Below, piece by piece: positions 26,237 to 63,753 of a DNA stretch of 64,000 bases; position 1 is the first letter of the stretch; every line of letters starts with the position of its first letter. This stretch comes from Anaerolineales bacterium. GTDB taxonomy: Bacteria > Chloroflexota > Anaerolineae > Anaerolineales > RBG-16-64-43. The stretch is from NCBI GenBank assembly GCA_035288225.1, contig DATEAT010000007.1:4828-68827 (forward strand), given 5' to 3'. A program made the position numbers and the translations under genes. The notes beneath the pieces are model-generated. The model was given only the letters and a program-made list of their open reading frames with translations. It was not told the origin of the DNA and did not search any database.

Positions 26237-26379
26237 CCTCCTTGCGCCCTGCGGCCAGGGACATTCGGGGCGGCCCGCCTGGCGGCCGCCGCGGCCAGTG
26301 TCCGCGCGTTGGCGCAGCGCGGGCCACTGCCTGCCGAAGGCATTCGAACTACAGGCTCCATCATACGGGAGGGGGGCCG

Positions 26380-29121: not shown

Positions 29122-29278
29122 GTATTCATGCGGGTCGTAGCCTGCGTCCTTTCAATCGAAAGAGGATAGCCCGCAGGCGCATGCCACTCTACATCGAGTC
29201 GGCAACGTACGCCGGCCTGGCTCGCCATGGCCAGTAGGCGCTCATGATGCGTTTGGGGCGGACTGGCAAGGGGGGTGA

Positions 29279-31393
29279 ATGAACCTCATCCGGCGCCGCC
29301 TGCTGATGTGCAGCCTCCTCGCGGCGGGCTTCTTGCTTCCGCCGGCGCTGCCGTCCCCTGCCGCCGACAAGCGCGAGATGCGCTCTGACCTGATATGGGA
29401 GTGGGCGACGGGATCGATCAAGACCAGGTTGCCGGAACGCTCGATCGAAGTCACCGATCTGGATGGGGATGGCGCCACCGACATGGTTGTGTGCCAGCAG
29501 GGTTACGTCACCAATTTGAACTTTGTCCCTCCCGCGGCCTATGCACCTGCCTGGTTCAGTGTTTACATGCGATGCACCGCGATCGCTACCGGCGACCGGA
29601 ATGGGGACGGCGCACGGGAGATCTACGCCCTGGTAGACCCCGGACGTGTCGTCATCCTGGATGCGAGCGGCCGCGCCGAACTGGGCGCATTCGACCTGCC
29701 CGCCGGCGTCGTCTCATATGATCTCGCCGTTGCCGATGTCGACGGTGACACCCATTCGGAGATCGTGGTCTCCCTCCGCGATCGCACGCTCGTCTATGAC
29801 GCGGCAACCTTTGCGCTGGAGTGGAGCGCGATCGGCCACGGTGCCGGTTCTGCCCACAACGGCGGAGTCCTTATCGCCAACATCGATGGCGATGCTTTGC
29901 TGGAAATTGTTGTCAACGGCGATGCCGGCCACATTCTGAACGCCGCTCTCCAGACGGAGGAATTCGGCATTGCCGGCGGATTGGGAAAGGACTTCGATCT
30001 GAGCGACGTCGACTCCGACGGCATGGCGGAAATCGTGTATGGCGAGAGTACCCAACTATACATCCTGGACGCTGATACGCTTTCGGTCAAGTGGCAACGC
30101 GGCGATCTGCCGATGGCGTACAGTGTGGTCGCCGTCGACCTGGACGGCAACGGCGAAACCGAAATCGTGCATGGAGATGGGAATGTGGTCCGTGGTCTCA
30201 ACGGGGCTAACGGCGCAACCCTGTGGACCTGGGACACTCCGCGCAACGAAACCGAGGGCCTTGTTGCCGGGGACCTCGACAGTGATGGCCTGGTGGAGTT
30301 GGGATGGGCGGCTCCCAGTGTCGGCGCCCTGTACATCGGGGACTGGCAATCGCAGACCGTCGACTGGGAGAGTTGGGACTATACGGGCACCTTCCTGGCA
30401 GAGACAGGTGATGTTGATGCCGATGGGGAAGGCGAGATTCTCGTCGCCCCGCGGTCGGGGGACTTGCTGGCTTACGCCGGGTCGTCGCACGATTTGCTCT
30501 GGTCGAAGGTGGACGACCCGGGGCTTTACCACACCTCCTTTCTCGAGCTGGGCCAGGTGGATGACGACTCCGCCCTAGAGATCCTTACCGCCAACTATTC
30601 GACATTGAGCGCGTTCGATGGGGCTACGGGGATGCGCGAGTGGGCGTATCACGTCTTCTCCTCGTCCGACCCCGCAGGGCTCGCTGTCGCCAATCTGGAT
30701 TCCGATCCGCAAGACGAGATCGTCATCGGCACCACGGCTGGCCACGTGCTTGTTCTGGACTCGGATGGAAGCACGGTATTGTGGGACAGCGGCGCCCAGC
30801 CTGGTTCGATCATTGATTTCTCCCTGGGCGACCTGAATGGTGACGGGGTCCTGGACCTGGCCGTCCTGACCGCTCAGGTCCTACGAGTGTTCACGACGGA
30901 CACATGGGAGCTGACCCAGGATGTTCCCTTCACGGATGGCGTTGCCATTGCCGTCGCCAACGGTGACGGGCGCAATGCGGGCGAACTGATCACCGCACGC
31001 TACGCCGGCTCCTACCTGCACACCCTCCAGGCCTGGAATGGCATCGACCTTCAACCCATCTGGCAGGAGTCACTATCCGTTGGCAGCGTTGAAGAGATCG
31101 ATGTCGCGGACCTGGATTCGGACGGCGTGCAGGAATTTCTCGTCATGGGCGTCTTTCGATACGACGTGATCGCGCATCCGAGCAGCTACCTGCGCATCGG
31201 CGCGCTGTATCACGACCCGGTGTGGGAGTATCAACTTCCCGACAATTGGGAGACGGTGTACGGAAGTGCGGCCTTCGACCTCGATAACGACTCGCGTCTG
31301 GAGCTTGTCCTGGGCGCCCATGCCACAGTCCAGGTGTATGAGGTCACGGGCTGGCCGGTGTATTACCTGTTTACTCCATTCGTGACACGCTGA
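29279..31393 (+). CDS. Secreted FG-GAP/VCBS-type repeat protein (14 blades), paralog lacking the C-terminal domain
   Basis: Signal peptide. 14 DxDxDG-type loops in the same blade order as the upstream gene (for example blade 4 ANIDGD and blade 10 ANLDSDP). Confidence 0.7.
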   Translation: MNLIRRRLLMCSLLAAGFLLPPALPSPAADKREMRSDLIWEWATGSIKTRLPERSIEVTDLDGDGATDMVVCQQGYVTNLNFVPPAAYAPAWFSVYMRCTAIATGDRNGDGAREIYALVDPGRVVILDASGRAELGAFDLPAGVVSYDLAVADVDGDTHSEIVVSLRDRTLVYDAATFALEWSAIGHGAGSAHNGGVLIANIDGDALLEIVVNGDAGHILNAALQTEEFGIAGGLGKDFDLSDVDSDGMAEIVYGESTQLYILDADTLSVKWQRGDLPMAYSVVAVDLDGNGETEIVHGDGNVVRGLNGANGATLWTWDTPRNETEGLVAGDLDSDGLVELGWAAPSVGALYIGDWQSQTVDWESWDYTGTFLAETGDVDADGEGEILVAPRSGDLLAYAGSSHDLLWSKVDDPGLYHTSFLELGQVDDDSALEILTANYSTLSAFDGATGMREWAYHVFSSSDPAGLAVANLDSDPQDEIVIGTTAGHVLVLDSDGSTVLWDSGAQPGSIIDFSLGDLNGDGVLDLAVLTAQVLRVFTTDTWELTQDVPFTDGVAIAVANGDGRNAGELITARYAGSYLHTLQAWNGIDLQPIWQESLSVGSVEEIDVADLDSDGVQEFLVMGVFRYDVIAHPSSYLRIGALYHDPVWEYQLPDNWETVYGSAAFDLDNDSRLELVLGAHATVQVYEVTGWPVYYLFTPFVTR

Positions 31394-33181: not shown

Positions 33182-33216
33182 AAGCGCCGGCCCACCATAT
33201 GGTGGGCCGGCGCTTT
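33182..33216. terminator. Bidirectional terminator hairpin (13-bp perfect stem GCGCCGGCCCACC / GGTGGGCCGGCGC, loop ATAT, flanked by AA / TTT)
   Basis: Read directly. Lies between convergent genes. Confidence 0.65.
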
Positions 33217-33237
33217 GCCTGCGGGCCGCAGTGCGCG

Positions 33238-33477
33238 CTAGAACAGCCCGCGAAGCAAGAGCAAGAAGCCGACAATGATTAGCGGGATCCCGATGATCGC
33301 GCCCACCACGGTGATCGTGAGCACCACGCCCACCACCATCAGCACGAAGCCGAGAATCACCGCCACCAGCCGCCCGGTGAATCCTAGGATCCACGTGAGC
33401 AACTGCCAGATGGCCCAGAACGGCCACAGATACCACGCCACACGCTTGCTGCTCGTCATCCTTGCCTCCTTACCCAT
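33238..33477 (-). CDS. Small two-TM membrane protein, unknown function
   Basis: ORF track 79 aa, strongly hydrophobic. Downstream of the PspC-domain gene on the same strand. Confidence 0.45.
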   Translation of the reverse strand: MGKEARMTSSKRVAWYLWPFWAIWQLLTWILGFTGRLVAVILGFVLMVVGVVLTITVVGAIIGIPLIIVGFLLLLRGLF

Positions 33478-33504
33478 CGCCTCACACGGATCCGGCGCTG
33501 TGGG

Positions 33505-33702
33505 TCACGCGCCAGGAATGATGATCCAGCACAAGAGGTACATGGCCAAACCGGGCACGCCGCCTGGGATGCAGGCCACGAGGAACCCCAAGCGGAACCA
33601 GGTTGGGCTGATTCCGAAGAATTCACCCAGGCCGCCGCACACGCCTGCCAGCACCCGGCTGGAGGGTGAACGACGCAGCGGCGCGCGGGTTGTCTCATTC
33701 AT
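33505..33702 (-). CDS. PspC-domain protein
   Basis: LRRSPSSRVLAGVCGGLGEFFGISPTWFRLGFLV plus a TM helix. Start set at the internal ATG 33702 (MNETT..). Confidence 0.7.
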   Translation of the reverse strand: MNETTRAPLRRSPSSRVLAGVCGGLGEFFGISPTWFRLGFLVACIPGGVPGLAMYLLCWIIIPGA

Positions 33703-33893
33703 TCTAGCCTCCGTCGATACATGTTCGTTCAAACTGGATATACGCACGTCCGCGGTGGCAGTTGCCGGTTTCGTTGCGGGTTTGGCTGGGGTCCGGCCGG
33801 GATGGGGAGGCTACGGCCGCTTGACACGCCAATAATGGCTGTAGACGCCTCCCAGGGGTGGCTGGAGGGCTTTGATGTGCCCAAGACTGGGGC

Positions 33894-33911
33894 TTGCGTA
33901 ATCTTTCACAA
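33894..33911. promoter_or_regulatory. Rex-like operator TTGCGTAATCTTTCACAA
   Basis: 12 of 14 specified positions match TTGTGAA-N4-TTCACAA, and the right half is perfect. It ends 3 nt upstream of the TG of the putative extended -10 element (33915-33923). Confidence 0.4.
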
Positions 33912-33914
33912 CTA

Positions 33915-33923
33915 TGCTATAGT
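33915..33923 (+). promoter_or_regulatory. Extended -10 promoter element TGCTATAGT (with TTGCGT 18 nt upstream)
   Basis: Only sigma-70-like signal I see in the 600-nt gap upstream of hdrA. It implies a leader of about 375 nt. Confidence 0.35.
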
Positions 33924-34306
33924 CTTCACTATCGGGAGAGGAACCTGACAATTTCGCACCACGGCGCTCGCTCCTGACTCTCTCGGAACTTACGTGGTTG
34001 TCATTGAGCCTTTTGGGGAGGGCTCACCGCCGCAGTTCCCAGTTGCGATGGACGGGGTTTCATGGCCCGAATTGGCGTGAACCCATGCCGCCGAACGCGC
34101 GGGCATCCGGGTGGCTCCCAGCCACCCCAGGTCAACTGTTGCCTGCCTCTGAATCCTCCCGTCTCCATCCGATTTCCAGCGAACGCCTCCCACGCGTCTG
34201 GCTCGGCCATCCCCTTTGAGCGTGTTGGCCCGCCGGCGCGCCATTCGATCCCGCCCGCTGCCCGTGGCGGGCCTTCGCCAACACCGCGCACAAGGAGGAG
34301 CACCGC

Positions 34307-36343
34307 ATGAGTGCCAACCGTAGCGCAGGCATCTCGCCGGGCGAGTACTCGGCCGCGCCTCCAGGCGAGAAGATCGGCGTGTACATCTGCCACTGCGGCA
34401 CCAACATCGCCGCCATGGTGGATGTTGCCGAGGTGGCCGAGTACGCCGGGGCGCTGCAGGGAGTGGCCGTCGCGCGCCACTACACCTACATGTGCTCCGA
34501 CCCGGGCCAAGCGATGATCCAGGAGGATATTCGCTCGCTCGGCTTGGACCGGGTGGTGGTGGCCTCCTGCTCGCCGCTCATGCACGAGCCCACCTTCCGT
34601 GCGGCGTGCGCCCAGGCCGGTCTCAACCCGTTTCTCTTCCAGATGACAAACATCCGCGAGCACGTCTCGTGGGTGAGCGACGACCGCAGCAGCGCAACGC
34701 AGAAGGCGCTGGCGTTGGTGACGGCAGCCGTGCGCCGGGTGTCATTGCAGCAGCCGCTCGAGACCCGCCAACTGGGAGTCACCCAGTCGGCGCTGGTGGT
34801 GGGCGGCGGTATTGCCGGCATCGAGGCCGCGCTACGCCTGGCCGATGCCGGCAAGCGAGTGTATCTGGTAGAGCGTGAGCCGTCGATCGGCGGGCACATG
34901 GCCCAACTCTACAAGACCTTTCCCACTCTCGACTGTGCGGCCTGAATTCTCACCCCCAAGATGGTGTCCGTGGGACGCCATGAGAACATCACACTCCTCA
35001 GCTACAGCGAGGTGGAAGCTGTATCCGGTTTCGTGGGGTCCTTCCAGGTGCGCGTGCGCCGCAAGGCGCGCCATGTGAAAGAAGATTTGTGCACCGGCTG
35101 CGGCACCTGCGTGCAGAAGTGTCCCTGGCGCAAGATCCCCTCCGAGTTCGACCTGGGCCTGGGCACCCGCCCGGCGATCTACTTCCCCTTCGGCCAGGCC
35201 GTGCCGCGCGTGCCGGTCATCGACACCGAGCACTGTGCCTACTTCGCCAAGGGCACCTGCCGCGCCTGCGCCAAATTTTGCCCGCGTGAAGCCATCGACT
35301 TCGAACAGACCGACCAGCAGCTCGAGCTCGAGGTCGGCACGATCATCCTGGCCACCGGCTTCCAGAACTACGACCCGCGCCGCGACTCGCGCTTCGGGTA
35401 CGGGGAACTGCCGGACGTGGTCACCGGGCCGGAGTTCGAACGGCTGGTGAATTCGGGCGGGCCCACATTGGGGCAGGTGCTGCGCGCCGACGGCACCCCA
35501 CCCAAGAAGGTGGCCCTCATCCATTGTGTGGGCAGCCGCGGCGAGGCACACGAATACTGCTCGCGCGTGTGCTGCATGTATTCGCTCAAGCTGGCGCACC
35601 TCGTCCACGATGCGACCGGGGCCGAGGTGACCGAGTTCTACCGCGACATGCGCACCTTCGGCAAGGACTACGAATCGTTCTACCGCCGAGTGGTTGCGGA
35701 GGGCATCCATACCTTCCGCTATGAGGGTGATGTGCAGGTGACCCAGGCCGATGGCCACTTGCGGGTGACCGCCACCGATGTGTTCACGGGAAAGCCGGCC
35801 GAGATCGAAAGTGACATGGTGATCCTGGCCACCGGCCTGGAGCCGCAGGCCGATCAACGGCAGGTGGCCCGCCGTTTCGGAGTGAGCCTCAGCCCGGACG
35901 GTTTCTTCATGGAGCGCCACCCCAAACTGGCGCCGGTGGAAACGGCCAGCGACGGCATCTTCCTGGCCGGCACCTGCCAGGGGCCCAAGGATATCCCCGA
36001 CAGCGTTGCCCAGGGGGGCGCCGCGGCGGCGGCCGCGCTCTCGCTGATGGATGCGGGCTACGTCTATCTCGAGCCCTTCACGGTGCACGTGCTGTCCGAG
36101 CGCTGCAGCGGCTGCCGCACCTGTCAGAACCTGTGCCCCTTCAGCGCGATCCAGATGACCGAGCACGACGGACGAACGGTCTCCACGATCAACGAAGTGC
36201 TGTGCAAGGGCTGCGGCACGTGCGCCGCCGCCTGCCCGGCCGGCGCCATATACCAGAACAACTTCTCCAACGATCAGGTCATCGCCGAAATCCTCGGGGC
36301 GCTGTCGATCGACCGCGCCGTTCCTCAGGAGGCCTTCCCATGA
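34307..36343 (+). CDS. hdrA: HdrA-like flavoprotein (heterodisulfide reductase subunit A family), selenocysteine-containing (TGA 34943-34945 read as Sec)
   Basis: ORFs 34307..34945 and 34961..36343 are in the same frame, separated only by TGA. Joined sequence: ..YKTFPTLDCAA-U-ILTPKMVSVGR... Other HdrA hallmarks: VYICHCGTNIA, GGGIAGIEAAL, CTGCGTC, CVGSRGEAHEYCSRVCCMYSLK, FLAGTCQGPKDIP, and a C-terminal 2x[4Fe-4S] ferredoxin. ATG follows AAGGAGGAG. Confidence 0.8.
34961..34981 (+). other. Putative bacterial SECIS-like hairpin (AUGGUGUCC gug GGACGCCAU)
   Basis: 9-bp stem including one G-U pair, starting 15 nt after the UGA. An equivalent hairpin follows the second UGA. Confidence 0.4.
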
Positions 36344-39300
36344 ACCGCTCCTCCCCCCGGACGGGCGTCTACGTCTGCCAGTGTGGGACCAATATTGCCG
36401 CGACGGTGGAGGTGCAGCAGGTAGCCGAGTTCGCGCGCGACCTGCCGGGCGTGGTGGCCGCCCGCAGTTACAGCTATATGTGCTCCGAGCCCGGCCAGGC
36501 GCTGATCAAGCAAGACATCCAGGACCACGGCCTCAACCGCGTGGTGGTGGCCTCCTGTTCGCCGCTCATGCACGAGCCCACATTCCGGCGCGCATGTGCC
36601 GAGGCCGGCCTCAACCCCTTCTGCATGCAGATGGCCAACATCCGCGAGCACTGTGCCTGGGTCATCGACGACCGTCAGCAGGCCACCGCCAAGGCCAAGC
36701 ATCTGGTGGCGGCCGCGGTCCGCCGGGTGGCTCAGCACCGCCCGCTGGAGATGCGCCAGGTGCATGTGGAGCCAGCCGCGCTGGTGGTGGGCGCGGGCAT
36801 CGCCGGCATCGAGGCGGCGCTGCGCCTGGCGGAGGCGGGCAAGCAGGTCTATCTGGTGGAGCGCGAGCCGTCGATCGGCGGCCACATGGCCCAGCTCTAC
36901 AAGACCTTTCCCACCCTCGACTGTGCGGCTTGAATACTCACACCCAAAATGGTGTCCGTTGGACGCCAAAAGAACATCAAGCTGCTGAGCTACAGCGAAA
37001 TCGAATCGGTTTCAGGCTATGTGGGCAACTTCGAGGTGCGCGTGCGGCGCAAGCCGCGCTACATCGATGAGAGCAAGTGCACCGGCTGCGGCAATTGCGC
37101 CACCGTCTGCCCGATCGAGGTGACCAACGTCTTCGACCTGGGGCTGAGCACGCGCCGCGCGGTGTACCGCCACTCGCCGCAAGCCGTGCCCGGCGCGTTT
37201 ACGATTGAGAAGCGCGGCATCGCCCCGTGCCGCAATGCCTGCCCAACCGACCAGCGCGCCCAGGGTTACATCGCCCTGGTTCGCCAGCGGCGTTTCGCCG
37301 ATGCCTACTGGGCCATCCGCCGCGAGCATCCCTTCCCCTCGGTGTGCGGGCGCGTGTGCAACCATCGCTGCGAAGATGCATGCAGCCGGGGCAGTTACGA
37401 TCAGCCGGTCAATATCATGGCCCTCAAGCGATTCGTCGCAGATTGGGCCTTCGACCATCGCGACCAGCTCCCGGCCCAGCGCGCCAAGTCGCTCACCGGC
37501 ACGCCCTTTGCCGTGCACCCGACGGCCAGCGGCAAGAAAATTGCGATCATCGGCGCCGGGCCGGCCGGGCTGACCACCGCCCTCGACCTGGTGCGCCTCG
37601 GCCACCAAACCACGGTATTCGATTCACTGCCGGTGGCCGGCGGGATGATGCGCGTGGGCATCCCGCCCCATCGCATGCCGCTGGAACTCATCGAATGGGA
37701 GATTCAGCAGATTCTGGACGAGGGCGTGCAATTGCGCCTGAACACGTGGGTTGACGACATCCCGGCGCTGCTCGACCAGGGCTACCATGCGGTGCTCATC
37801 GCCACCGGTGCCCACCAGGCCAAGAAGATTCCCATCCGCAACTCGAACCATCCCGACAACTGGCTCAGCCTGAACCTGTTGCGGCGTGTGGCGCAGGGCG
37901 AGGCGATCGACCTGCGCGAGCGCAGCGTGATCGTGATGGGCGGCGGCAACGTGGCCCTCGACACGGCGCGCACGGTAGTGCGCCTGGGCGCGCGCCAAGT
38001 GAGCATCGTGTGCCTCGAACCGCGCGGCGAGATGCCGGGCTTCGCCTGGGAAGTGGGGGTGGCCGAGCAGGAGGGCATCCACGTGCTGCCCGGGCGGACC
38101 TTTAAGGAAGTGGTGGTCAAGGGCAGCCGCATCAGCGGGCTGCGCTGCACCGAGGTTGTCTTCCGTGGCTTCAAGCGCGGGCGGCCCGATATCAGCGAGA
38201 TTCCCGGCACCGAGCACGTTGTGCCCGGCGATCTGGTGATCTGGGCCATCGGCCAGGGGCCGGATTTCTCCTTCCTGCCCGGCGACGGCAGCATCAACAC
38301 GTGTTATCCGGTGGGTATCCAGACCAACAGCGAGATGATGACCACCACCCCGGGCGTGTTCTGCGCGGGTGATGTGCGCCGCGGGCAGACCTTCTTTGTG
38401 GTCGACGCCATCGGCGAGGGCCACCACGCCGCGCGCTGCATCGACCGTTACCTGCGCGGCGAGCAGGGTGTGCAAGAAACGCATCGGCCGCCGGTGGTGG
38501 AATTGCGCCGCGAGGAGATCGAGCACAAATTGGAGCTGGGGGAAGCCGCGCGCCATCCGCGCGCGGTGATCCGCAACATCGGCGTGGAAGCGCGCCGGCT
38601 CAACTTCCGCGAAGTGGATCTCACGCTGACCGAAGCCGAGGCTGTGGCCGAGGCCGAGCGCTGCCTGCGCTGCGGAGTATGTTCCGAGTGCTTGGAGTGC
38701 GTCTCGGCATGCGAGCGAGGGGCGATCAACCACGACATGCAGGCCGAGATCTTGGATCTCAAGGTGGGGACGCTGGTGCTGGCCACCGGCTTCCGCGATT
38801 TCGACCCGCGAGTTGCCCCTGAGCTGGGTTACGGGCGCCTGCCAAATGTGCTGAGCGCTATGGAGTTTGAGCGGCTGATCAACACCGGCGGCCCGACGCT
38901 GGGCAAGGTGCTGCTCGCCAACGGTCAGCCGCCCAAGCGGGTGGCCATCGTGCACTGTGTGGGCAGCCGCGACGACCGCTACCACGAGTATTGCTCGCGC
39001 GCCTGTTGCATGTACTCACTCAAGATCGCCCAACTGGCACACGAGTACCTGCAGGCGGAGGTGTTCGAGATCTACCGCGACATGCGCTCCTTCGGCAAAG
39101 GCTACGAGGAGTTCTACAACCGCACGCGCGCGAGCGGCGTTAACTTCTTCCACGGCCGGGTGCGCGAGGTGACGGCGGTTGATGGACACCTGCGCGTGCA
39201 GTGGGAAGAGAGTTTCCACAACGAGCCCGACCAGGTGGACGTGGACCTCGTGATTCTCGCCACGGGCATGGAACCGCAAGGCGATACGGCACGCATGGCG

Positions 39301-39762
39301 AAGCTTTTCGGTCTCTCGCGCAGCCGGGATGGGTTCTTCCTCGAGCGCCATCCCAAGCTCGCCCCAGTGGAGACCTCCTCGCAGGGCATCTTCCTTGCCG
39401 GAGCGTGCCAGAGTCCCAAAGACATCCCCGACACGGTGGCGCAGGCCTCTGCCGCTGCAGCCGGCGCGCTGGCCCTCATCGACCAGCACACCATCAGCCT
39501 GGATCCCTCCATTGCCGAGGTGGAGGCGGCACGCTGCCTAGGCTGCGGCCAGTGTGCAGCCGCCTGCCCGTATGGGGCCATCGAACTGGCGCGCGGCAAG
39601 GCCGCGGTCAACGCCTACTTGTGCAAAGGCTGCGGCACGTGCGCCGGGGCGTGCCCGAACAAGGCCATGAGCCTCATCCATTTCGACGACCGCGAGTTGA
39701 TTGCCGAACTGGACGGTGCCCTGGCGTGGATCGATGCCGCCGAAGAGGTGGGCCATGTATGA
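36340..39762 (+). CDS. Chimeric HdrA-like flavoprotein with inserted GltD/NfnB-like NAD(P)H-binding module, selenocysteine-containing (TGA 36931-36933 read as Sec)
   Basis: ATG 36340 overlaps the hdrA stop (ATGA). ORFs ..36933 and 36949.. share a frame across TGA, in the identical TLDCAA-U-ILTPKMVSVGR context. The middle about 430 aa has CRNACP..VCGRVCNHRCEDAC, GKKIAIIGAGPAGL, VIVMGGGNVALD and GVFCAGD. The flanks are collinear with HdrA. Confidence 0.75.
36950..36968 (+). other. Putative SECIS-like hairpin (UGGUGUCC guu GGACGCCA)
   Basis: 8-bp stem starting 16 nt after the UGA at 36931. Confidence 0.4.
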
Positions 39763-40243
39763 ACCCAAGGTGATCGGATTCCTGTGTACCTGGTGCAGCT
39801 ACACCGGCGCCGACTCGGCCGGCACCTCGCGCCTGAAAACCCCGTGGAACCTGCGCGCCGTGCGCGTGCCGTGCTCCGGGCGCGTGGCGCCGGAGCTCAT
39901 CCTGCGCGCCTTCGACCAAGGGGCCGACGGCGTTCTGGTGCTCGGCTGCCACATCGGCGAATGCCACTACGACAGCGGCAACCATCGCGCCGCTAAGCGC
40001 ATCCCGCTGCTGCTCTCCATCCTGGAGTTTGCCGGGATGCAGCCCGAGCGGCTGCGTTTGGATTGGGTGTCGGCCTCGGAGGGCGATCGCTACGCGCGGA
40101 TCGTGAGCGAGTTTGTCGACGCGCTGCGCCCACTTGGGCCCGACACCTGGCGTATCAGCGGCGCCGCCCCGAGGGCCGACGCGGCGATCGGCGTGCCGCT
40201 GGCGGCGTCGTCGGAGCTGAGCGGAGGCGCACCATGTCCATAA
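39755..40243 (+). CDS. mvhD: MvhD/FlpD-like protein (methyl-viologen-reducing hydrogenase delta subunit family)
   Basis: GFLCTWCSYTGADSAG..VPCSGRV..GADGVLVLGCHIGECHY. The start overlaps the upstream stop by 8 nt. Confidence 0.8.
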   Translation: MYEPKVIGFLCTWCSYTGADSAGTSRLKTPWNLRAVRVPCSGRVAPELILRAFDQGADGVLVLGCHIGECHYDSGNHRAAKRIPLLLSILEFAGMQPERLRLDWVSASEGDRYARIVSEFVDALRPLGPDTWRISGAAPRADAAIGVPLAASSELSGGAPCP

Positions 40244-41127
40244 GCGAAGCCATGCAATCCGCGGCGCGCGATGTGCTGGCCTCCGGCCAAGTACAACGGG
40301 TCATCGGCTACGAGGTAGGCCCGCACGGCCGCGTTCGCCCGGCGATCATCGACCGGCCGGAGGAGGCCGGGCGCCTGGTGTGGAGCGCGGACTGCACACA
40401 TAACCTGACTGTCTACCTGCAGCGCGCCTTGAACGGCGAGAACGGCCGCGCCTCGCACGAGGCCGCGACCCCGCCGACGCGCGTCGCCATCGTCGTCAAG
40501 CCGTGCGACAGCCGCGCGATCAATGTGCTGCTCGCCGAGCACCAGTTCTCACGCGAGCAGGTTTTCGCCATCGGCATGGCCTGCGAGGGGATACGCCAGG
40601 GCGCGCCGGCCAGTGTGCCGGAGGCGACGCTGCAGGCACGCTGCCTGCGCTGCCGCGAGCGGGTGCCGGTAGTCCAGGATGTGCTGCTCGGCGAGCCGCC
40701 GAGCGCGCTGCCGGAGGCGCTGCCGGACGAGGCGCTGGCGCACGTGCGCGGCATGCCGCCGGCCGAGCGGGCCGCCTTCTGGCTCAGCCAGTTCGATCGG
40801 TGCATTCGCTGCTACGCCTGTCGCCAGGCCTGTCCGATGTGCAATTGCCCGACCTGTCTCTTCGAACAAGAGGATGCACTGTGGGTGGGCATGCGCATCG
40901 CGCCCTCCGAGAAGCGCACCTTCCACTTGGGGCGCGCGCTGCACCTCGCCGGGCGCTGCGTCGGCTGTAACGAGTGCGAACGAGTGTGCCCGATGGGCAT
41001 TCCGATCGGGCTGCTCAACCGCCATCTGGCGGAGACCGTCGAGAGCCTGTACGGTCATCGGGCCGGGATGCAGCCGGTGCTCTCACCGGTGACGGGCATG
41101 CTCAGCGCGGAGGAGAGTGCCCCATGA
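40234..41127 (+). CDS. Iron-sulfur protein, 4Fe-4S dicluster type (FlxC / HydB / AsrA-related)
   Basis: VKPCDSRAINVL, CIRCYACRQACPMCNC and CVGCNECERVCPMGIP. Overlaps mvhD by 10 nt. Confidence 0.6.
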   Translation: MSISEAMQSAARDVLASGQVQRVIGYEVGPHGRVRPAIIDRPEEAGRLVWSADCTHNLTVYLQRALNGENGRASHEAATPPTRVAIVVKPCDSRAINVLLAEHQFSREQVFAIGMACEGIRQGAPASVPEATLQARCLRCRERVPVVQDVLLGEPPSALPEALPDEALAHVRGMPPAERAAFWLSQFDRCIRCYACRQACPMCNCPTCLFEQEDALWVGMRIAPSEKRTFHLGRALHLAGRCVGCNECERVCPMGIPIGLLNRHLAETVESLYGHRAGMQPVLSPVTGMLSAEESAP

Positions 41128-42122
41128 AGACTCTCTCGCGAGAGAATCTCAACCTCTGGCTGGATGGGCTGGCGGCGCAGCAGGTGCTCATCGCCCCGCA
41201 CCTCGAGGCGCAAGGCGTGTTCTATCGCCCGGTGCAGCGGGCCCAGGAGATTGCCTGGGAGGCAGGCCGCCCGGTGCTCTCGGCCAAGGAATTCCTGTTT
41301 CCCCCCAGCGAACGCCTGCTCAAGGTGGAGAAGCGCGGGCCGGACATCCGTCTCGAGGCCAGCCCTTCCGCCGCGCCACAAGTGATCTTTGGCCTACGCC
41401 CGTGCGATGCGCGCGGCATCCGCGTGTTGGACGCGGCCTTCGTCGATACACCGCCGATTGACCCCCAGTATGCGAGCCGCCGTGAGAACACGCTGCTCGT
41501 GGGGCTGGCCTGTCGCAGCATGGGCGCCTCCTGCTTCTGTACCGCCGTGGGCCTGGCACCGGATGACCCGCGCGACATGGACGTGATGTTCAGCGATCGC
41601 GGGGCGACGCTGGCCGTGCAGGCCCTGACCCCGCGCGGCGAGGCGCTCATCGCCAACCTGGCGCTGGTCGAGGAGCCAGGGGAAGTGGCGCCCGCCTCGC
41701 GACGAGAGGTGAGCGGCCTGCCAACGGCCGAGGCTTGGAAAGAGAGTTACAGCGACGCGCGATGGGCCAAGCACGGCGAGCGCTGCCTGAGCTGCCGCCT
41801 GTGCGCTTACGTCTGCCCCACCTGCCGCTGTTACGACGTACGCGATGAGGCGCTGCCCTCCCCGCCGGGCGAGGCACACTTCGAGCGGTTGCGCACATGG
41901 GATAGCTGCACGCGGGAAGGCTACCGGCGCACGGCCGGCGGGCACAACCCGCGCGCGGCTTCGGGCAGCCGCCTGCGCAACCGGCTGCTGTGCAAGTTCG
42001 TCTACTACCCGCATCAGTATGGCCCTGCCGCCTGCACCGGTTGCGGTCGCTGCCTCGACGCATGCCCGGTGAACCTCGACCTGCTCGAGATTGGCGGCGC
42101 GCTTCAGGAGGCTGCCCAATGA
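41124..42122 (+). CDS. Iron-sulfur protein, anaerobic sulfite reductase subunit A / sulfhydrogenase beta (HydB) / FlxB-like
   Basis: LRPCDARGIRVLD, CFCTAVG, CLSCRLCAYVCPTCRCYD and CTGCGRCLDACPVNL. ATGA overlap with the upstream gene. Confidence 0.65.
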   Translation: MKTLSRENLNLWLDGLAAQQVLIAPHLEAQGVFYRPVQRAQEIAWEAGRPVLSAKEFLFPPSERLLKVEKRGPDIRLEASPSAAPQVIFGLRPCDARGIRVLDAAFVDTPPIDPQYASRRENTLLVGLACRSMGASCFCTAVGLAPDDPRDMDVMFSDRGATLAVQALTPRGEALIANLALVEEPGEVAPASRREVSGLPTAEAWKESYSDARWAKHGERCLSCRLCAYVCPTCRCYDVRDEALPSPPGEAHFERLRTWDSCTREGYRRTAGGHNPRAASGSRLRNRLLCKFVYYPHQYGPAACTGCGRCLDACPVNLDLLEIGGALQEAAQ

Positions 42123-42964
42123 GCACAGCCGACGGCACCGATCCGATGTATCCACTCCTGGGGCGATTGGTTTCCAGCCGCGACATGGGGCGCGAGATCA
42201 AACTGCTCGGGGTGAAGCTGCTCAATGGAACACAGCCCCGCTTTCCAGCCTATGCGCCGGGTCAGTTCGCCTTCCTTTCGGCGTTCGGAATCGGCGAGGC
42301 GCCCTTCGGGCTGGCCTCCACCACCGAACGAGGCGAAGTGCTTGAGTTCGCCGTGCAGCGCCTGGGCTCCGTGACGACCGGCCTGCACGAGCTGGCCGAG
42401 GGCGATGCGCTGGGGGTGCGCGGCCCCCTGGGCAACACCTTCCCGATGGAGGCCTTCCAGCACAAGAACTTGCTCGTGCTCGGCGGCGGCATCGGCGGCG
42501 CGCCGTTGCGCCCGCTGATTCACAGCGTACTCGACCACCGCCAGGATTATGGTCAATTGACCATTCTGTGGGCAGCCCGCCACCCCTCGCTGCTCATATT
42601 CCGCGACGAATACGAAAGTTGGCGCGCCGCGCCGCACACCGAGCTGCACCTGACCGTGGATGAGGCGGATGCCGCGTGGGATCATCACGTGGGCCTGATG
42701 ACCGATCTTGTGCGGCAGGTGGCGCCCTCAGCCGCCAACACCATCGCCATCACCTGCGGGCCGCCGATTATGATCTATCACGTCGACAAGCTGCTCAGCG
42801 AACTGGGCTTCGCGCCCGAGCAGCGCTACGTCACGCTCGAGGCGCGCATGCACTGCGGCCTGGGCAAGTGCGGACGATGTAATATGGGCGAGCTCTTGGT
42901 GTGCCGCGACGGGCCGGTCTTTTCTATGGCCCAGGTCGGCAACTTCTTGGAGAGTTACCTGTAG
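42119..42964 (+). CDS. FAD/NAD(P)-binding oxidoreductase with C-terminal [2Fe-2S] (AsrB / HydG / PyrK / NfnA / FlxA-like)
   Basis: PGQFAFLS, LLVLGGGIGGAPLRPL and the C-terminal CGLGKCGRCNMG...VCRDGPVF. ATGA overlap with the upstream gene. Confidence 0.7.
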   Translation: MSTADGTDPMYPLLGRLVSSRDMGREIKLLGVKLLNGTQPRFPAYAPGQFAFLSAFGIGEAPFGLASTTERGEVLEFAVQRLGSVTTGLHELAEGDALGVRGPLGNTFPMEAFQHKNLLVLGGGIGGAPLRPLIHSVLDHRQDYGQLTILWAARHPSLLIFRDEYESWRAAPHTELHLTVDEADAAWDHHVGLMTDLVRQVAPSAANTIAITCGPPIMIYHVDKLLSELGFAPEQRYVTLEARMHCGLGKCGRCNMGELLVCRDGPVFSMAQVGNFLESYL

Positions 42965-43000: not shown

Positions 43001-43030
43001 TATGCGGGTCGCCATCTGGCGACCCGCATA
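43001..43030. terminator. 13-bp perfect hairpin between convergent operons (TATGCGGGTCGCC atct GGCGACCCGCATA)
   Basis: Read directly. It lies 37 nt after the stop at 42964 and 30 nt from the kinase stop at 43060. Confidence 0.6.
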
Positions 43031-43059: not shown

Positions 43060-44946
43060 TCAGGCAGCCCGCGCGGGTTCCGGGGCTGCAGTCTCCAGGG
43101 GAAGCACAACAGTGAAAGTGGTGCCGCGTCCTTCCTCGCTTTGCACGCTGATCAACCCCCCAAAGGAATCCACCAGACGCTTGACGATGCTCAGGCCCAG
43201 GCCGGTGCCCACGATCCCGGAGTGGCGCGCATTGGAGGCGCGGAAGAATTCTTCCCACAGGCGCGGCATCTCGTCCCGCGGAATGCCCATGCCGGTATCG
43301 GCGATCACCACCTCGGCCGAGGTGGCGCGCAGACCGACGCGCACCTCCACCTGCCCGTCGGCCGGGGTGTATTTGACCGCGTTGCCAATCAGATTCTCAA
43401 GGACGCCCGCCAACCCGTCGTGTGTCGCGCGCACGTCCACCTTCCCCGGCGGCAAGCGCACGCGCAGCCCCACCCGTTTGACCTTGGCGGCCGCTGCGTG
43501 CTGCTCGACCGCCCACTGCACCACCGCCTTGAGCTCCACCGCCTCGGTGCGCTCCTCAAAGCCCATCGTCTTGGTGGCGGCCAGGGCCAGCAGGTCGCCG
43601 ATGAGTGCCATCAACCGGTCGAGGCGGCCGAGCACGCGAGCGACGATATCCTTCTGTTTGTCGCTCATCTCGCCCGACATCCCACCCAGCATGACCCGCA
43701 GCAGGCTTTGCGCGCCGCCCACCGGCGAGCGCAATTCGTGGGTCACCGTGCGCACGAACTCCGCGCGGGCCTGGTCGGCACGCTGCAGCGCCTCGTGCGC
43801 CTGGGCGTTTTCGATGGCCACCGCTCCCTCGCGTGCGATGGCCGTGACATAGTCAGCGTCGGCCGGAGTGAAGCGCCGCGGCTGATCGGCGTACACGCGC
43901 AGCACCCCCAGCGGGCGCGTGCGGCCCATGATCGGGACCACCAGGATACTGAGAATACCCTCCTGAATGACCTCGTCGGGATACTGCAAGCGGTCGTCGG
44001 CCAGCACATCATTGACGATGACCGGAGTCCCCGAGAGCACCTCGCGATCCATGGGACTGCGCGAAAGATCCACCGGCCCTTTGCGCTGGTATTCCGCACG
44101 CAGCCCATAGGAGGCCGCCAGGATGAGCCTCTCGCCCGTTTCATCCAGCAGGCGGATGGAGGCGCGCTCCGTGGAGAGCACGTGTGCGGCGTTGCGCGCC
44201 AGGCGTTCGAGCACCTGCGGCAAGCTGAGCGTCGACGAAACGGCTTGCGTCGCCTGCAGCAAGCCCACCACTTGTCGTTCGCGTTCGCGCAGGCGGTCCA
44301 TAATCGAGGCACTCAGCACGACGGTCCCCGCGGCCGCGATCCCGAAGAACCCGATTTGGGCCAGGATGAAGAGCGGCTGCCGGTAGAGGTCGGGTGGCAG
44401 GAAGGGCAGCGCCGGCAGGTTGGGCAGCACTCCGGTGGCTTCGGCGAGGGCCAGCACGATGAGCGCGCCCAGACCGATGCTCACGGTGAGCAATGGGTGC
44501 GTTCCGGGGAACAGGATGGCCCCGATCAGCATGTGGATGAGGAAGAAAGGAATTGCCGGGCTGGTCAGGCCGCCGGTCAGATGCAGGAAGATGGCCATTG
44601 CCATCCAGTCGAGCGCCACCTGGAGAAGTACCAAGCGCCGGATGCCCCGCGAATACAGCGCCGCATCGTCCGAGAAGATCCGCCCGGTGAGCCACAAGAG
44701 AACCAGATTGTAGAAGAGAATCGTGAGACCGAGCGCGACAAGCGGCGTTTCGGGGATCGGCAGACCCAGCAGTCGAACGCAAGCCAGCGCCCCGATGAGC
44801 ACGCCGGTGCCGGCCAGCCAGCGGATCTGAATCAGACGCGCACTGGTGCTGGCCACATCGCCCGGCAGCAGCCCATCGTGCCGGCTGGCGGGGATGTCGT
44901 TCTCGGGCGGGACCGCGGACAAGTCCACCTCAGGTGGTTCGGTCAC
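43060..44946 (-). CDS. Sensor histidine kinase (polytopic N-terminus, GAF, HisKA, HATPase_c); no cognate regulator adjacent
   Basis: TVTHELRSP (H-box), NLIGNAVKYT (N-box), DTGMGIP and GTGLGLSIV. GTG start. Confidence 0.8.
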   Translation of the reverse strand: MTEPPEVDLSAVPPENDIPASRHDGLLPGDVASTSARLIQIRWLAGTGVLIGALACVRLLGLPIPETPLVALGLTILFYNLVLLWLTGRIFSDDAALYSRGIRRLVLLQVALDWMAMAIFLHLTGGLTSPAIPFFLIHMLIGAILFPGTHPLLTVSIGLGALIVLALAEATGVLPNLPALPFLPPDLYRQPLFILAQIGFFGIAAAGTVVLSASIMDRLRERERQVVGLLQATQAVSSTLSLPQVLERLARNAAHVLSTERASIRLLDETGERLILAASYGLRAEYQRKGPVDLSRSPMDREVLSGTPVIVNDVLADDRLQYPDEVIQEGILSILVVPIMGRTRPLGVLRVYADQPRRFTPADADYVTAIAREGAVAIENAQAHEALQRADQARAEFVRTVTHELRSPVGGAQSLLRVMLGGMSGEMSDKQKDIVARVLGRLDRLMALIGDLLALAATKTMGFEERTEAVELKAVVQWAVEQHAAAAKVKRVGLRVRLPPGKVDVRATHDGLAGVLENLIGNAVKYTPADGQVEVRVGLRATSAEVVIADTGMGIPRDEMPRLWEEFFRASNARHSGIVGTGLGLSIVKRLVDSFGGLISVQSEEGRGTTFTVVLPLETAAPEPARAA

Positions 44947-53321: not shown

Positions 53322-53386
53322 AGCGCAGCCCGCCCGTTTCGTGCGCCGCTTTTCACTGCCCCGACGCGCGCTTCCGATGAGGGCAC

Positions 53387-53395
53387 TGCTATAAT
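53387..53395 (+). promoter_or_regulatory. Extended -10 promoter element TGCTATAAT, 6 nt upstream of the ATG (leaderless or near-leaderless transcript)
   Basis: TGnTATAAT read directly. The ATG is at 53402 and no Shine-Dalgarno sequence fits in between. Confidence 0.45.
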
Positions 53396-53401: not shown

Positions 53402-53947
53402 ATGAGCCAGCCCACGCCTTCCACCTCACCCGGCGGCACCCCGGCTTATCGTGATCTGCTGACAAGCTCGTTGTTGATGGGTCTGGGGGGCTGGGCGCTC
53501 ATTGCCGCGCTCGTCTTTCTCGTCTCGCCCACCCTCGGCCCGCGCTGGGCGTTCTTCTTCGCACTCTTCATCGCCCTGGTGGGCACCTCCACTCCGCTGC
53601 TGTGGTACCTCAATCGCCGTTTCTCGCCCGATCCATTCCCAAGCCCAGGCGTGCTATGGCGCGAGGCCGTGGAAGTCGGCGTCTGGGGGTTGTTCCTTGT
53701 TTGGCTGCGCGTCGGGCGCCTGCTCACCCCCTTTGCCGCATGGACGCTGACTGGCGCTGTCTTCGCCGTGGAGCTCCTGCTGCGGCTGTACGAGCGCAGC
53801 CGATGGGCGCCATCGACCTCCGTGCGTTCGCCCGCGGCCCCTGTGGAGGCAACGCCCCCGGCCGAGGCAGCCGAGCCGCCGACGGCATCGCTCGTCACGC
53901 CTCCTTTCATCGATGATGAGTTGGATTCGGACGATCCGCCCGCATGA
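53402..53947 (+). CDS. Membrane protein (4 TM helices, acidic Pro/Ala-rich tail), unknown function; translationally coupled to selA
   Basis: Hydrophobic profile of the ORF. The stop overlaps the selA start (ATGA at 53944). Confidence 0.5.
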   Translation: MSQPTPSTSPGGTPAYRDLLTSSLLMGLGGWALIAALVFLVSPTLGPRWAFFFALFIALVGTSTPLLWYLNRRFSPDPFPSPGVLWREAVEVGVWGLFLVWLRVGRLLTPFAAWTLTGAVFAVELLLRLYERSRWAPSTSVRSPAAPVEATPPAEAAEPPTASLVTPPFIDDELDSDDPPA

Positions 53948-55323
53948 GCCTGCGCGAGCTTCCCTCGGTTGATGTGCTTCTACAGCAGCCCCACACGCGC
54001 CGCCTGACCGAGGCCTACGGGCGCGATCTCACCCTGGATGCGTTGCGCAGCGCGCTGCAAGGCGCGCGGGATGCCGTACGCGCCGGGCAACCCGTTCCAT
54101 CGGCCGAGGTGCTCCTCGAAAGCGCACAGCGGAACCTGGCCGAGTGGACCGCTCCCAGCCTGGTGCCGGTGATCAATGCCACCGGCGTCATCCTGCACAC
54201 CAACCTCGGCCGCGCGCCGCTCAGCGCCTCCGCCCTGCGCGCCATGCTGCAGGTGGCACAGGGCTACGCCACCCTCGAATACGACCTGCCCTCCGGCCAG
54301 CGCGGCACGCGCACGGCGCATGCCGAACGATTGCTCACCCGCCTCACCGGCGCTGAAGCCGCACTGGTCGTCAACAACAATGCCGGGGCCGTCCTGCTCG
54401 CGCTCACTGCCCTCGCCAAGGGGCGCGAGGTGATCATTGCCCGCTCGCAGCTGGTCGAGGTTGGCGGGGGGTTCCGCATCCCGGACGTCATGCGCCAGTC
54501 GGGCGCGCGCCTGGTCGAGGTGGGTACAAGCAATCGCACGCACCCGGCCGACTTCAAAGAAGCACTCGGCGCGCGCACAGCAATGCTGCTGCGTGCGCAC
54601 CATTCGAACTTCCGCCTGGTCGGGTTCACGAGTGAGCCGACACTGGCCGAGATGGCGGAGGTGGCGGCGGCACATCAGGTGCCTGTGGTGGACGACCTGG
54701 GCTCGGGTGCGCTGCTCGATACCGCGGCCTTCGGATTGGGCCACGAACCCATGGTCCAGGAATCGCTCGCGGCGGGCGCGGCGCTGGTGATGTTCTCGGG
54801 CGATAAACTGCTGGGCGGCCCGCAAGCTGGAATCCTGGTCGGGCACGAGGCGTTGATGGCACGCCTGCGCAAGCATCCGCTGGCGCGCGCGCTGCGCGCC
54901 GACAAGTTGTGCCTGGCGGCGCTGGAAGCCACGCTGCTCCACTATGCCCGCGGCGAGGCCCTTCAGGCGCTGCCCGTGTGGCAGATGATCGCCGCGCCGC
55001 TCACCACGCTGCGCGTGCGCGCCGAGCGCTGGGCGGCCGAGCTCGGACAGGGACAGGCGATCGAGAGCCGCTCCACCGTGGGCGGTGGCAGCCTGCCCGA
55101 AGAAACGCTGCCCACCTGGGCGCTGGCCCTTACGCTGCCCAAGCCGCAGACGGTGCTCGCGCGCCTTCGCCAGGCGAGCCCGCCGATCATCGCCCGCGTG
55201 GAGGAGCAGCGCGTGCTGCTCGACCCGCGCACCGTTTTGCCGGATCAGGATGAGATGCTCCTGCGCCAGCTGGCCGAGGTGCTCGCGGCCTCCACGACTA
55301 CACAGACAGGGAAGGCGTCATGA
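53944..55323 (+). CDS. selA: L-seryl-tRNA(Sec) selenium transferase
   Basis: VINATGVILHTNLGRAPL, LEYDL..G.RG.R, ALVVNNNAGAVLLAL and FSGDKLLGGPQAGILVG (PLP lysine). Confidence 0.88.
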   Translation: MSLRELPSVDVLLQQPHTRRLTEAYGRDLTLDALRSALQGARDAVRAGQPVPSAEVLLESAQRNLAEWTAPSLVPVINATGVILHTNLGRAPLSASALRAMLQVAQGYATLEYDLPSGQRGTRTAHAERLLTRLTGAEAALVVNNNAGAVLLALTALAKGREVIIARSQLVEVGGGFRIPDVMRQSGARLVEVGTSNRTHPADFKEALGARTAMLLRAHHSNFRLVGFTSEPTLAEMAEVAAAHQVPVVDDLGSGALLDTAAFGLGHEPMVQESLAAGAALVMFSGDKLLGGPQAGILVGHEALMARLRKHPLARALRADKLCLAALEATLLHYARGEALQALPVWQMIAAPLTTLRVRAERWAAELGQGQAIESRSTVGGGSLPEETLPTWALALTLPKPQTVLARLRQASPPIIARVEEQRVLLDPRTVLPDQDEMLLRQLAEVLAASTTTQTGKAS

Positions 55324-63750: not shown

Positions 63751-63753
63751 GTC

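Follow-up and report, generated by a model that had tools for sequence, protein, structure and literature searches.

We describe a six-gene operon that encodes two HdrA-type flavoproteins and a set of Flx-like subunits, found in a 64,000-nt stretch of DNA from an Anaerolineales bacterium (GCA_035288225.1, contig DATEAT010000007.1, positions 4,828-68,827, forward strand), hereafter the window. Both HdrA-type genes, here called g1 and g2, are strongly supported as selenoprotein genes. The six-gene arrangement, which includes neither HdrB nor HdrC (HdrBC), is conserved and apparently undescribed, all of its modules having been described already. Judged by homology and gene comparison, the operon may encode a self-contained NAD(P)H/NAD(H)/ferredoxin bifurcating oxidoreductase, a soluble, selenium-dependent flavin and iron-sulfur (FeS) complex operating without HdrBC, and we favor this reading tentatively; the partners of the complex would most likely be NAD(P)H and ferredoxin. 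In anaerobic digesters, in sediments and in the subsurface, Anaerolineae rank with the most abundant bacteria, yet the enzymes by which they manage energy and redox balance are known largely by inference.

Organization of the operon

The six plus-strand genes (g1 to g6, Table 1) span positions 34307-42964, and all five junctions between them overlap. Stop and start codons share an ATGA at 36340, 41124 and 42119, and overlaps of 8 and 10 nt lie at 39755 and 40234, exactly where an earlier reading of this DNA, made from the letters only (the sequence-only reading), had placed them. With a GGAGG-type ribosome-binding site 6-10 nt before every one of the six starts, the cluster is one translationally coupled operon. 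Because the G+C content of the window is 62-70%, spurious open reading frames (ORFs) are abundant, and coding frames were chosen by third-position G+C content (GC3). The domain identities given in the sequence-only reading hold in Pfam and NCBIfam hidden Markov model searches, and its description of an Flx-like set in the order D-C-B-A is correct at the level of domain families.

No gene for a CCG-domain protein (PF02754), a hydrogenase (NiFeSe_Hases, Oxidored_q6) or a molybdopterin enzyme or formate dehydrogenase (FDH) was detected by Pfam among all plausible ORFs of the 64 kb. A regular expression (regex) for the CCG motif returned zero matches in the window, and no sulfate-reduction or DsrC genes were found there. 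The absence of HdrBC, hydrogenase and FDH that had been read from the sequence is therefore borne out for this window; it does not extend to hdrBC in the rest of the genome, as methanogens often separate hdrA from hdrBC.

Table 1. Features of the operon and its surroundings in the window (positions are those of the 64,000-nt stretch)
Feature	Positions	Strand	Basis or remark
Non-coding leader / divergent promoter region	33699..34306	+	~608 nt before g1 ATG
Rex-type operator candidate TTGCGTAATCTTTCACAA	33894..33911	+	in leader, ~396 nt before g1 ATG
g1, hdrA, canonical full-length, 678 aa	34307..36343	+	NCBIfam HdrA2/HdrA, E 4e-242
g1 selenocysteine codon TGA	34943..34945	+	motif FPTLDCAA-U-ILTPK, residue 213
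g1 SECIS-like hairpin GGUGUCC-GUG-GGACGCC	34962..34980	+	folding
g2, hdrL / type III hdrA, 1140 aa	36340..39762	+	HdrA with GltD-like module inserted
g2 selenocysteine codon TGA	36931..36933	+	same motif, FPTLDCAA-TGA-ILTPK, residue 198
g2 SECIS-like hairpin GGUGUCC-GUU-GGACGCC	36950..36968	+	folding
GltD/NfnB-like insert of g2, ~residues 286-774	37195..38661	+	Pfam Fer4_20 295-373, Pyr_redox_2 400-694
g3, mvhD / flxD-like [2Fe-2S] adaptor, 162 aa	39755..40243	+	Pfam FlpD 1-123/123, E 8e-48
g4, FdhB/FrhB-fold FeS protein, flxC-like	40234..41127	+	PDB matches, AlphaFold (AF2) model, Foldseek
g5, HydB/AsrA-like FeS subunit, flxB-like	41124..42122	+	Pfam Fer4_22, E 2e-29
g6, HydG/AsrB-like FAD + NAD(P)H + [2Fe-2S] subunit, flxA-like	42119..42964	+	Pfam NAD_binding_1, DHODB_Fe-S_bind
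13-bp G+C-rich hairpin	43001..43030	+	37 nt past g6 stop codon
selA, L-seryl-tRNA(Sec) selenium transferase	53920..55323	+	Pfam SelA E 4e-132, Se-cys_synth_N

Selenocysteine codons in both HdrA-type genes

Each of g1 and g2 carries one in-frame TGA, and the mechanical ORF list therefore shows eight pieces; the cluster consists of six genes only if both TGAs are decoded as selenocysteine (Sec). The six ORFs of the sequence-only reading stand as six genes, given Sec readthrough; that reading passed over both TGAs and over the selenoprotein character of g1 and g2. In g1 and g2 alike the TGA occupies the position of Sec197 in HdrA of Methanococcus maripaludis, a known selenoprotein site, and both paralogs hold a Cys-x-x-Sec motif. 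Across 108 copies of the motif FPTxDCxx[U/C]ILTPK, drawn from the window and 83 related loci that are in part redundant, the codon at this site is TGA in 72, TGT in 25 and TGC in 11.

An 8-bp hairpin, GGUGUCC-GUN-GGACGCC, resembling a Sec insertion sequence (SECIS) begins 19 nt after each TGA. In a non-redundant set it is present in 65 of 65 TGA copies versus 0 of 36 copies with a Cys codon. Its nucleotides are 100% conserved among the TGA copies, synonymous sites included, and the mean folding energy of the segment is -12.0 kcal/mol in these, versus -4.0 kcal/mol in the Cys copies. Since no Rfam family matched (no riboswitch or SECIS family in the whole window at the gathering threshold, nor in 33200-37400 at E values up to 5), the case for a SECIS rests on these comparative data. 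The selA gene sits 11 kb downstream, outside the operon; Pfam scans of the window turned up neither selB nor selD, and a tRNA scan gave no tRNA gene there, tRNA-Sec included. It is the TGA at a known Cys/Sec site of HdrA, the TGA-linked hairpin and the presence of selA in the window that mark g1 and g2 as selenoprotein genes. Just before selA lies a 188-aa ORF (53381-53947) with no Pfam match.

Were the TGAs true stops that arose in pseudogenes or from sequencing errors, the cluster would be decayed or its proteins truncated. Such an origin would explain why the mechanical list splits g1 and g2 and why public gene calls end homologs at the same point, most g2 homologs being ~935 aa long and covering 81% of g2. 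It has next to no chance of being correct, and we reject it, because at the TGA position 36 homologs have Cys and M. maripaludis HdrA has Sec197, the identical hairpin accompanies TGA and not Cys codons, selA is at hand, and GC3 stays coding-type (0.84-0.86) across both in-frame TGAs. Gene calls in public records break at the TGA, which makes for systematic mis-annotation of the whole family.

A canonical HdrA beside an HdrL

The g1 product is a full-length HdrA whose residues 21-667 align end to end with residues 12-654 of PDB 8rvu_a (E 7e-213), from the N-terminal cluster domain through the TrxR-like FAD domain to the C-terminal ferredoxin domain, and whose inserted ferredoxin domain is intact and complete. 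In g2, NCBIfam recognizes HdrA in two stretches (7-304 and 773-1129), and a GltD-like NAD(P)-binding family covers residues 291-802 between and across them; once the insert is removed, g2 is 60% identical to g1. The insert of ~490 residues contains two [4Fe-4S] motifs (Fer4_20), an FAD site and an NAD(P)H Rossmann site, and it splits the inserted ferredoxin domain of g2 between CTGCGNCATVCP and CLRCGVCSEC...ERGAI. A Glu356/Lys409 pair near the flavin is the signature used to tell bifurcating from non-bifurcating HdrA. Both residues are kept in g1 and g2, which each have EFERL and CCMYSLK aligning to LELER and CCMYAMK of 5odc_A, in a Methanothermococcus thermolithotrophicus numbering that assumes that chain index equals residue number.

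Judged by its sequence, the HdrA-GltD chimera is a protein already described under three names. It was reported in 2009 from Desulfobacterium autotrophicum as HdrL, a 'heterodisulfide reductase/glutamate synthase fusion' that often contains Sec and is always followed by mvhD, and that genome also has a tandem hdrL/hdrA locus. HdrA9-11 of the anaerobic methanotrophic archaea ANME-1 (2022) have an insert within the ferredoxin domain, and the 'type III HdrA' (2025) is predicted to block access of ferredoxin and to take NAD(P)H as a mid-potential donor through the former ferredoxin arm. The sequence-only reading had presented the whole as a candidate undescribed complex; this fails for the chimera and holds for the six-gene order without HdrBC, of which no description was found in the searchable literature, though an earlier mention of an hdrBC-less flx-hdrA cluster may exist outside it.

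The closest structures to the insert are 9bov_A (E 7.6e-83), NfnA 9n5u_A (2.8e-73), StnC 8oh5_C (1.8e-65) and NfnB 4ylf_B (8e-57), and it has the same post-GltD linker as the GltD-like domains of Bfu-type transhydrogenases. By these scores the bifurcating NfnB is a more distant match than the Stn/NfnABC domains, which serve as non-bifurcating NADPH inputs. In Stn, the GltD-like domain is a non-bifurcating entry for NADPH, wired to a separate bifurcating module. This makes doubtful the earlier count of two best-known bifurcating modules, HdrA and NfnB/GltD. The Arg that marks the NfnB flavin (R201, corresponding to R239 of the non-bifurcating StnC) was tried as a way to recognize a bifurcating GltD flavin and set aside, as it is kept in both kinds and does not discriminate.

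The nucleotide site of the g2 insert reads GGGNVA...CLEPRGEMP, with CLE where relatives have YRR. The YRR form after GxGxxA occurs in 9bov_A and NfnA 9n5u_A, which were aligned residue by residue, and in 40 HdrL copies, nearly all of them from outside the Anaerolineae; many of the YRR loci have a CCG gene next to hdrL. CLE characterizes the clade of the window, another Anaerolineae clade has FRK or CRK, and a third lacks 3 residues and reads GAGDVA. These residue classes may mark switches of nucleotide specificity. As a rule of thumb, a Rossmann fold usually prefers NAD(H) over NADP(H) where that strand ends in an acidic residue. Because CLE replaces the NADPH-type YRR, the site in the g2 insert is likely to bind NAD(H) in the clade of the window. 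Operons with two hdrL genes (L002, L003, L010, L035 and L050 in the labelling of related loci given below) pair different classes, one copy being FRK and one CLE. In the same five loci, a third HdrA-type gene is present in the order hdrL-hdrA-hdrL-mvhD-..., and every copy has the Sec codon and the hairpin.

A putative NAD(P)H-linked input arm

The remaining four genes look like an NAD(P)H-fed version (g6-g5-g4-g3) of the donor arm that hydrogenase, formate dehydrogenase (Fdh) or Elp supplies to HdrA in methanogens. The g3 adaptor also matches NCBIfam VhuD and the C-terminus of HdrA2; its start overlaps the g2 stop by the 8 nt mentioned above, and mvhD lies directly 3' of hdrL in nearly all 83 loci. 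The g4 protein has 15 invariant Cys and no NCBIfam match. Its C-terminal half matches the C-terminus of FdhB (8rvu_E, 2e-23; 7bkb_E, 2.5e-20), and its AF2 model (pLDDT 81, pTM 0.82) is matched over nearly its full length in Foldseek by 7bkb_E, the FdhB of Fdh-Hdr-Fmd (E 8e-13, TMq 0.69), and also by the FdhB-like subunit of Elp-Hdr, 8rvu_E (E 1e-11). A role for g4 as a stand-in for HdrC was considered and rejected, since both sequence and fold match FdhB and not HdrC. MvhD and the g4 homolog form a single polypeptide in 26 of 44 related loci, which argues that g3 and g4 are in contact.

The g5 protein, only distantly paralogous to g4, matches NCBIfam ShyB/HydB/AsrA (E 3e-44 to 4e-40) and the beta subunit of sulfhydrogenase I (SHI; 9nez_B, E 3.6e-43). 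For g6, the NCBIfam matches are PRK08345 (1e-55) and AsrB (1e-48), and the SHI gamma subunit 9nez_C scores 4.7e-45 versus 1.3e-13 for NfnA 4ylf_A; the NfnA-like label first given to g6 is accordingly replaced by HydG/AsrB/sulfhydrogenase-gamma-like. Alignment of g6 to SHI gamma, PyrK and NfnA was uninformative as to a preference for NAD(H) or NADP(H).

Conservation among relatives and the CCG neighbors

Relatives were sought with the part of g2 that spans the junctions and the insert, using one genome per species. At least 583 genomes matched, and the best 80 of these at least 583 were retained as a species-representative set, onto whose loci (labelled L001-L083) the six window proteins were mapped. 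Chloroflexi bacterium RBG_16_64_43 and an Anaerolineae metagenome-assembled genome (MAG) come nearest, at 97%. The sequence-only reading had asked whether the gene order recurs, and it does: among the 80 best-matching species genomes the order hdrA-hdrL-mvhD-FeS-hydB-flxA is complete in 37 loci, and 8 further loci cut by contig ends agree with it as far as they reach. Carriers of this order belong to Anaerolineae, some Dehalococcoidia and one Hadarchaeota MAG. No cultured carrier was found, the named matches among g4 and HdrL homologs all being MAGs. No redox partner gene recurs among the operon neighbors in 41 loci, where the recurring genes encode only InhA-like protease, histidine kinase, ClpB and cNMP-binding proteins.

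CCG genes near these loci were searched by a regex for ORFs with two CCG motifs (2xCCG) within ~9 kb, with Pfam checks in a few loci. Such an ORF accompanies only 2 of the 37 complete loci. In L006, hdrB-hdrL2 directly follows the six genes. The other 35 loci come from many phyla at no more than ~45% identity and have no complete Flx-like set on the same strand, most keeping only hdrL-mvhD; in 24 of them a ~300-aa 2xCCG ORF, confirmed by Pfam as CCG in two, ends at the hdrL start. In 22 of these 24 the hdrL strand is free of Flx-like genes, so that the insert is apparently the sole pyridine-nucleotide site encoded next to hdrL. Regex matches within MvhD-FeS fusion ORFs (L002, L003, L010, L024) were discarded as single-motif chance hits, Pfam showing no CCG in L002/L003.

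Three loci from Dehalococcoidia combine the modules differently. In a Dehalococcoidales MAG (L041, 6892-16651), hdrC-hdrB-hdrL-metF is convergent with mvhD-FeS-hydB-flxA; hdrC and metF were confirmed, the latter as a fused methylenetetrahydrofolate reductase (MTHFR)/DUF5981 gene (MetF-MetV-like) after hdrL. From its gene content, this is a Moorella-like Hdr-type methylene-tetrahydrofolate reductase cluster with HdrL and an Flx-like module. L054 likewise has Flx-like genes beside hdrB-hdrL. In a Dehalococcoidia MAG (L038, 1-6153, minus strand), an mvhGA-hdrCB-hdrA operon is divergent from the hdrA-hdrL-mvhD genes and comprises a response regulator, [NiFe] hydrogenase small and large subunits, a fused hdrCB and a further hdrA.

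The CCG neighbors bear on a different account, in which the window encodes an Flx-Hdr-type NAD(P)H:disulfide reductase with an extra HdrL, its HdrBC or HdrD (for DsrC, heterodisulfide or another thiol carrier) being encoded elsewhere, and in which electrons from NAD(P)H are bifurcated at HdrA to ferredoxin and a disulfide. We consider this the main rival, a real if somewhat doubtful possibility. By domain, all four Flx equivalents and HdrA are present, and the hdrB-like genes directly upstream of hdrL in 24 of 35 loci, the hdrB-hdrL2 pair of L006 and the arrangement of L041/L054 all place a CCG protein with HdrL. HdrABC/HdrL proteins are abundant in the proteome of Syntrophobacter fumaroxidans with sulfate, hdrA and hdrBC occupy separate clusters in M. 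thermolithotrophicus, and HdrC is needed for the canonical high-potential exit of HdrA. On the other hand, a CCG gene is missing from the 64 kb and from ~9 kb around 35 of the 37 complete loci; in L006, hdrB is paired with a further hdrL and so looks like part of a distinct unit; disulfide reduction has no need of two NAD(P)H modules; and the window is without sulfate-reduction or DsrC genes.

The leader and a Rex-type operator candidate

The leader contains the sole match in 64 kb, at no more than 2 mismatches, to TTGTGAANNNNTTCACAA (TTGTGAAN4TTCACAA), the Rex operator consensus of PMC2883068; 0.04 matches were expected. Among 33 orthologous loci, a box with no more than 2 mismatches stands in the 900 nt before the operon in 15 (L005, L007, L011, L013, L016, L021, L027, L030, L032, L035, L050, L057, L073, L081 and L083), versus 0.09 loci in composition-preserving shuffles. 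The operator here and in these loci leads us to predict that expression is tied to NADH/NAD+. There is no rex gene in the window.

The two elements that had been taken to bound the cluster, a non-coding leader and a 13-bp hairpin, are where the sequence-only reading put them. Between 33699 and 34306 there is no ORF with coding-like GC3 or a Pfam match, and a promoter scan of the leader gave no sigma-70 consensus match. The hairpin is not a canonical intrinsic terminator: a T-tract is absent and a terminator scan made no call. On its upstream side the leader is delimited by two overlapping minus-strand ORFs, 33238-33504 (GC3 0.85, weak DUF5362 match) and 33456-33698 (good ribosome-binding site, GC3 0.58), which may be one small gene with a frame change, or two.

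Proposed reaction and its alternatives

In the bifurcating oxidoreductase that we tentatively favor, g1 and g2 would form a heterodimer with three substrate sites, one for a pyridine nucleotide at g6, a second, probably for NAD(H), at the g2 insert, and one for ferredoxin at the inserted domain of g1. The sites would be coupled by flavin-based bifurcation or confurcation at the HdrA flavins, giving in sum an Nfn/Stn-like NAD(P)H:ferredoxin:NAD(P)+ oxidoreductase on an HdrA scaffold. The direction in vivo would probably be from NADH and reduced ferredoxin to NADPH, or else the reverse, and expression would be controlled by the NADH sensor Rex and switched on at high NADH.

Several lines of evidence point this way. 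Self-containment is argued from the overlap of all junctions, the recurrence of the order in 37 + 8 loci of 80 genomes, the rarity of 2xCCG ORFs near them (2 of 37) and the lack of a recurring redox partner. The complex would have two separate nucleotide modules because g6 is SHI-gamma-like and g2 has a GltD-like insert, for which the Stn/NfnABC domain, the type III HdrA prediction and the NADH-oxidizing, HdrL-like half of Moorella thermoacetica HdrA provide precedent as an NAD(P)H input. The change from YRR to CLE and the Rex-type operator before the operon also count in its favor. The complete ferredoxin domain of g1 and the retention of E356/K409 in g1 and g2 argue for a ferredoxin site and a capacity to bifurcate, and the input arm is supported by the match of g4 to the FdhB of Fdh-Hdr and Elp-Hdr and by its fusion to MvhD in 26 of 44 loci. 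The sequence-only reading left the terminal acceptor unassigned, and that caution is upheld.

A number of points weigh against the proposal. Its chief weakness concerns the path of electrons. Low-potential electrons leave a canonical HdrA by its inserted ferredoxin domain, and the high-potential electron goes to HdrC; here no subunit stands in the HdrC position, and a rewired or inter-protomer path would be required. The nucleotide specificity of g6 is not readable from sequence, the CLE/YRR reading of specificity is a rule of thumb, and the site is FRK or deleted in other clades of Anaerolineae. In Dehalococcoidia, L041/L054 and L038 join Flx-like modules and HdrL with CCG proteins. M. thermolithotrophicus keeps hdrA and hdrBC in separate clusters, as methanogens often do, and hdrBC may in the same way lie far from hdrA in this organism, of whose genome the window covers 64 kb.

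A non-bifurcating hub is the third account, and a rather improbable one: a downhill reduced-ferredoxin:NAD(P)+ oxidoreductase, or an NAD(P)H input that passes through HdrA/MvhD to a changeable, non-adjacent partner. HdrA/MvhD modules do serve varied partners, such as MetFV in L041, Mvh in L038, and Fdh and Elp in the solved complexes; the partner could be a membrane complex or a reductase, MvhD of Sporomusa ovata being largely membrane-associated; and non-bifurcating HdrA homologs reportedly exist (Appel 2021). A hub of this kind would nevertheless have to be reconciled with the E356/K409 bifurcation signature in both HdrA paralogs, with the lack of any partner gene recurring near the operon, and with the cost of six subunits, at least three flavins and Sec for a simple downhill reaction.

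If the proposed oxidoreductase exists, it could represent a further HdrA-based, selenium-dependent class of ferredoxin-coupled NADH/NADPH transhydrogenase that needs neither HdrBC nor a thiol substrate, built on an HdrA-HdrL heterodimer with one or two bifurcating flavins. Anaerolineae, and perhaps some Dehalococcoidia and Hadarchaeota, would then depend chiefly on this enzyme for their redox balance. Taken as a whole, this extension is speculative and unlikely to hold in all its parts. A conserved operon with two Sec codons and apparent Rex control, recurring in dozens of species-level genomes, would be central to the balance of ferredoxin, NADH and NADPH. It would also offer a natural HdrA system without HdrBC, in which an ordinary HdrA stands beside a paralog that has an NAD(P)H module in place of its ferredoxin arm, and it raises questions about how an HdrA flavin works without a high-potential partner, whether electrons can pass between the protomers of an HdrA heterodimer, and what role the Cys-x-x-Sec pair plays.

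Surrounding genes

The operon is flanked upstream by an alpha-amylase gene (plus strand) and downstream by a GAF-HisKA-HATPase histidine kinase gene (43060-44946, minus strand). The kinase is an operon neighbor in 9 of 41 loci, perhaps as residual synteny or as a regulator. Farther upstream, two adjacent N_BRCA1_IG Ig-like proteins and two large FG-GAP/beta-propeller repeat proteins are encoded at 21192-23045 (minus strand) and 26170-31393 (plus strand); they are probably cell-surface proteins unconnected with the operon. At 58508-62828 and 63199-63753 (both minus strand) lie system I cytochrome c maturation genes (CcmC-like, CcmB, ABC ATPase), adjoined by genes for a 719-aa protein with two cytochrome c domains and an AhpC/TSA-type thiol-disulfide protein. 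The cytochrome c maturation and cytochrome genes hint that the organism is not purely fermentative.

Comparison with known systems

One of the nearest systems is FlxABCD-HdrABC of Desulfovibrio vulgaris, reportedly described by Ramos and colleagues in 2015. At the level of domain families, FlxA-, FlxB-, FlxC- and FlxD-type proteins are clustered with HdrA in both. In the window these genes run D-C-B-A and are placed after the hdrA genes; HdrB and HdrC genes are lacking, and there are two HdrA paralogs, one of them GltD-inserted and both selenoproteins.

HdrL and type III HdrA share with g2 the plan of an HdrA in which a GltD/NfnB-like module of ~500 aa interrupts the inserted ferredoxin domain. 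The described HdrL cases sit with hdrBC, dsrABC, fdh or mvhADG, whereas in the window HdrL is accompanied by a second, canonical hdrA and an Flx-like module, free of CCG genes, and has CLE in place of the NADPH-type YRR. In the 1487-aa HdrA of M. thermoacetica, which oxidizes NADH, an HdrL-like half, with GltD interrupting its TrxR-like domain, is fused to an HdrA half, so that the fused halves of the Moorella HdrCBA-MvhD-MetVF complex correspond to two adjacent genes in the window. That complex includes HdrBC and a MetVF acceptor module, and its HdrA half has no inserted ferredoxin domain; the window has neither HdrBC nor MetF, and g1 retains the ferredoxin domain.

Compared with the methanogen Mvh-, Fdh- and Elp-HdrABC complexes (5odc, 7bkb, 8rvu), the window shares the end-to-end match of g1 (E ~1e-210), the Sec197 site, MvhD and the FdhB fold of g4. 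It differs in having an SHI beta/gamma-like NAD(P)H module as donor, no HdrBC, and no coenzyme M/coenzyme B (CoM/CoB) chemistry.

NfnAB and StnABC/NfnABC are three-partner enzymes that use NADH, NADPH and ferredoxin and no other substrate. The g2 insert resembles their GltD-like FAD/NAD(P)H domain, its two [4Fe-4S] clusters included, and StnC and NfnA (Bfu) have the linker in common with it. Unlike Stn/NfnABC, none of the six proteins contains a HydBC/NuoEF-like flavobicluster (NuoE/NuoF-type) domain, and unlike NfnAB, the GltD-like part is internal to HdrA and has no NfnA partner; the candidate bifurcating flavins in the window are of the HdrA type. The closest relatives of g5 and g6, finally, are the beta and gamma subunits of Pyrococcus furiosus sulfhydrogenase I (9nez), which likewise form an NAD(P)H-linked two-subunit module. 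There the module serves hydrogenase alpha and delta subunits, which have no counterpart in the window, where the g5/g6 module would instead feed MvhD and HdrA.

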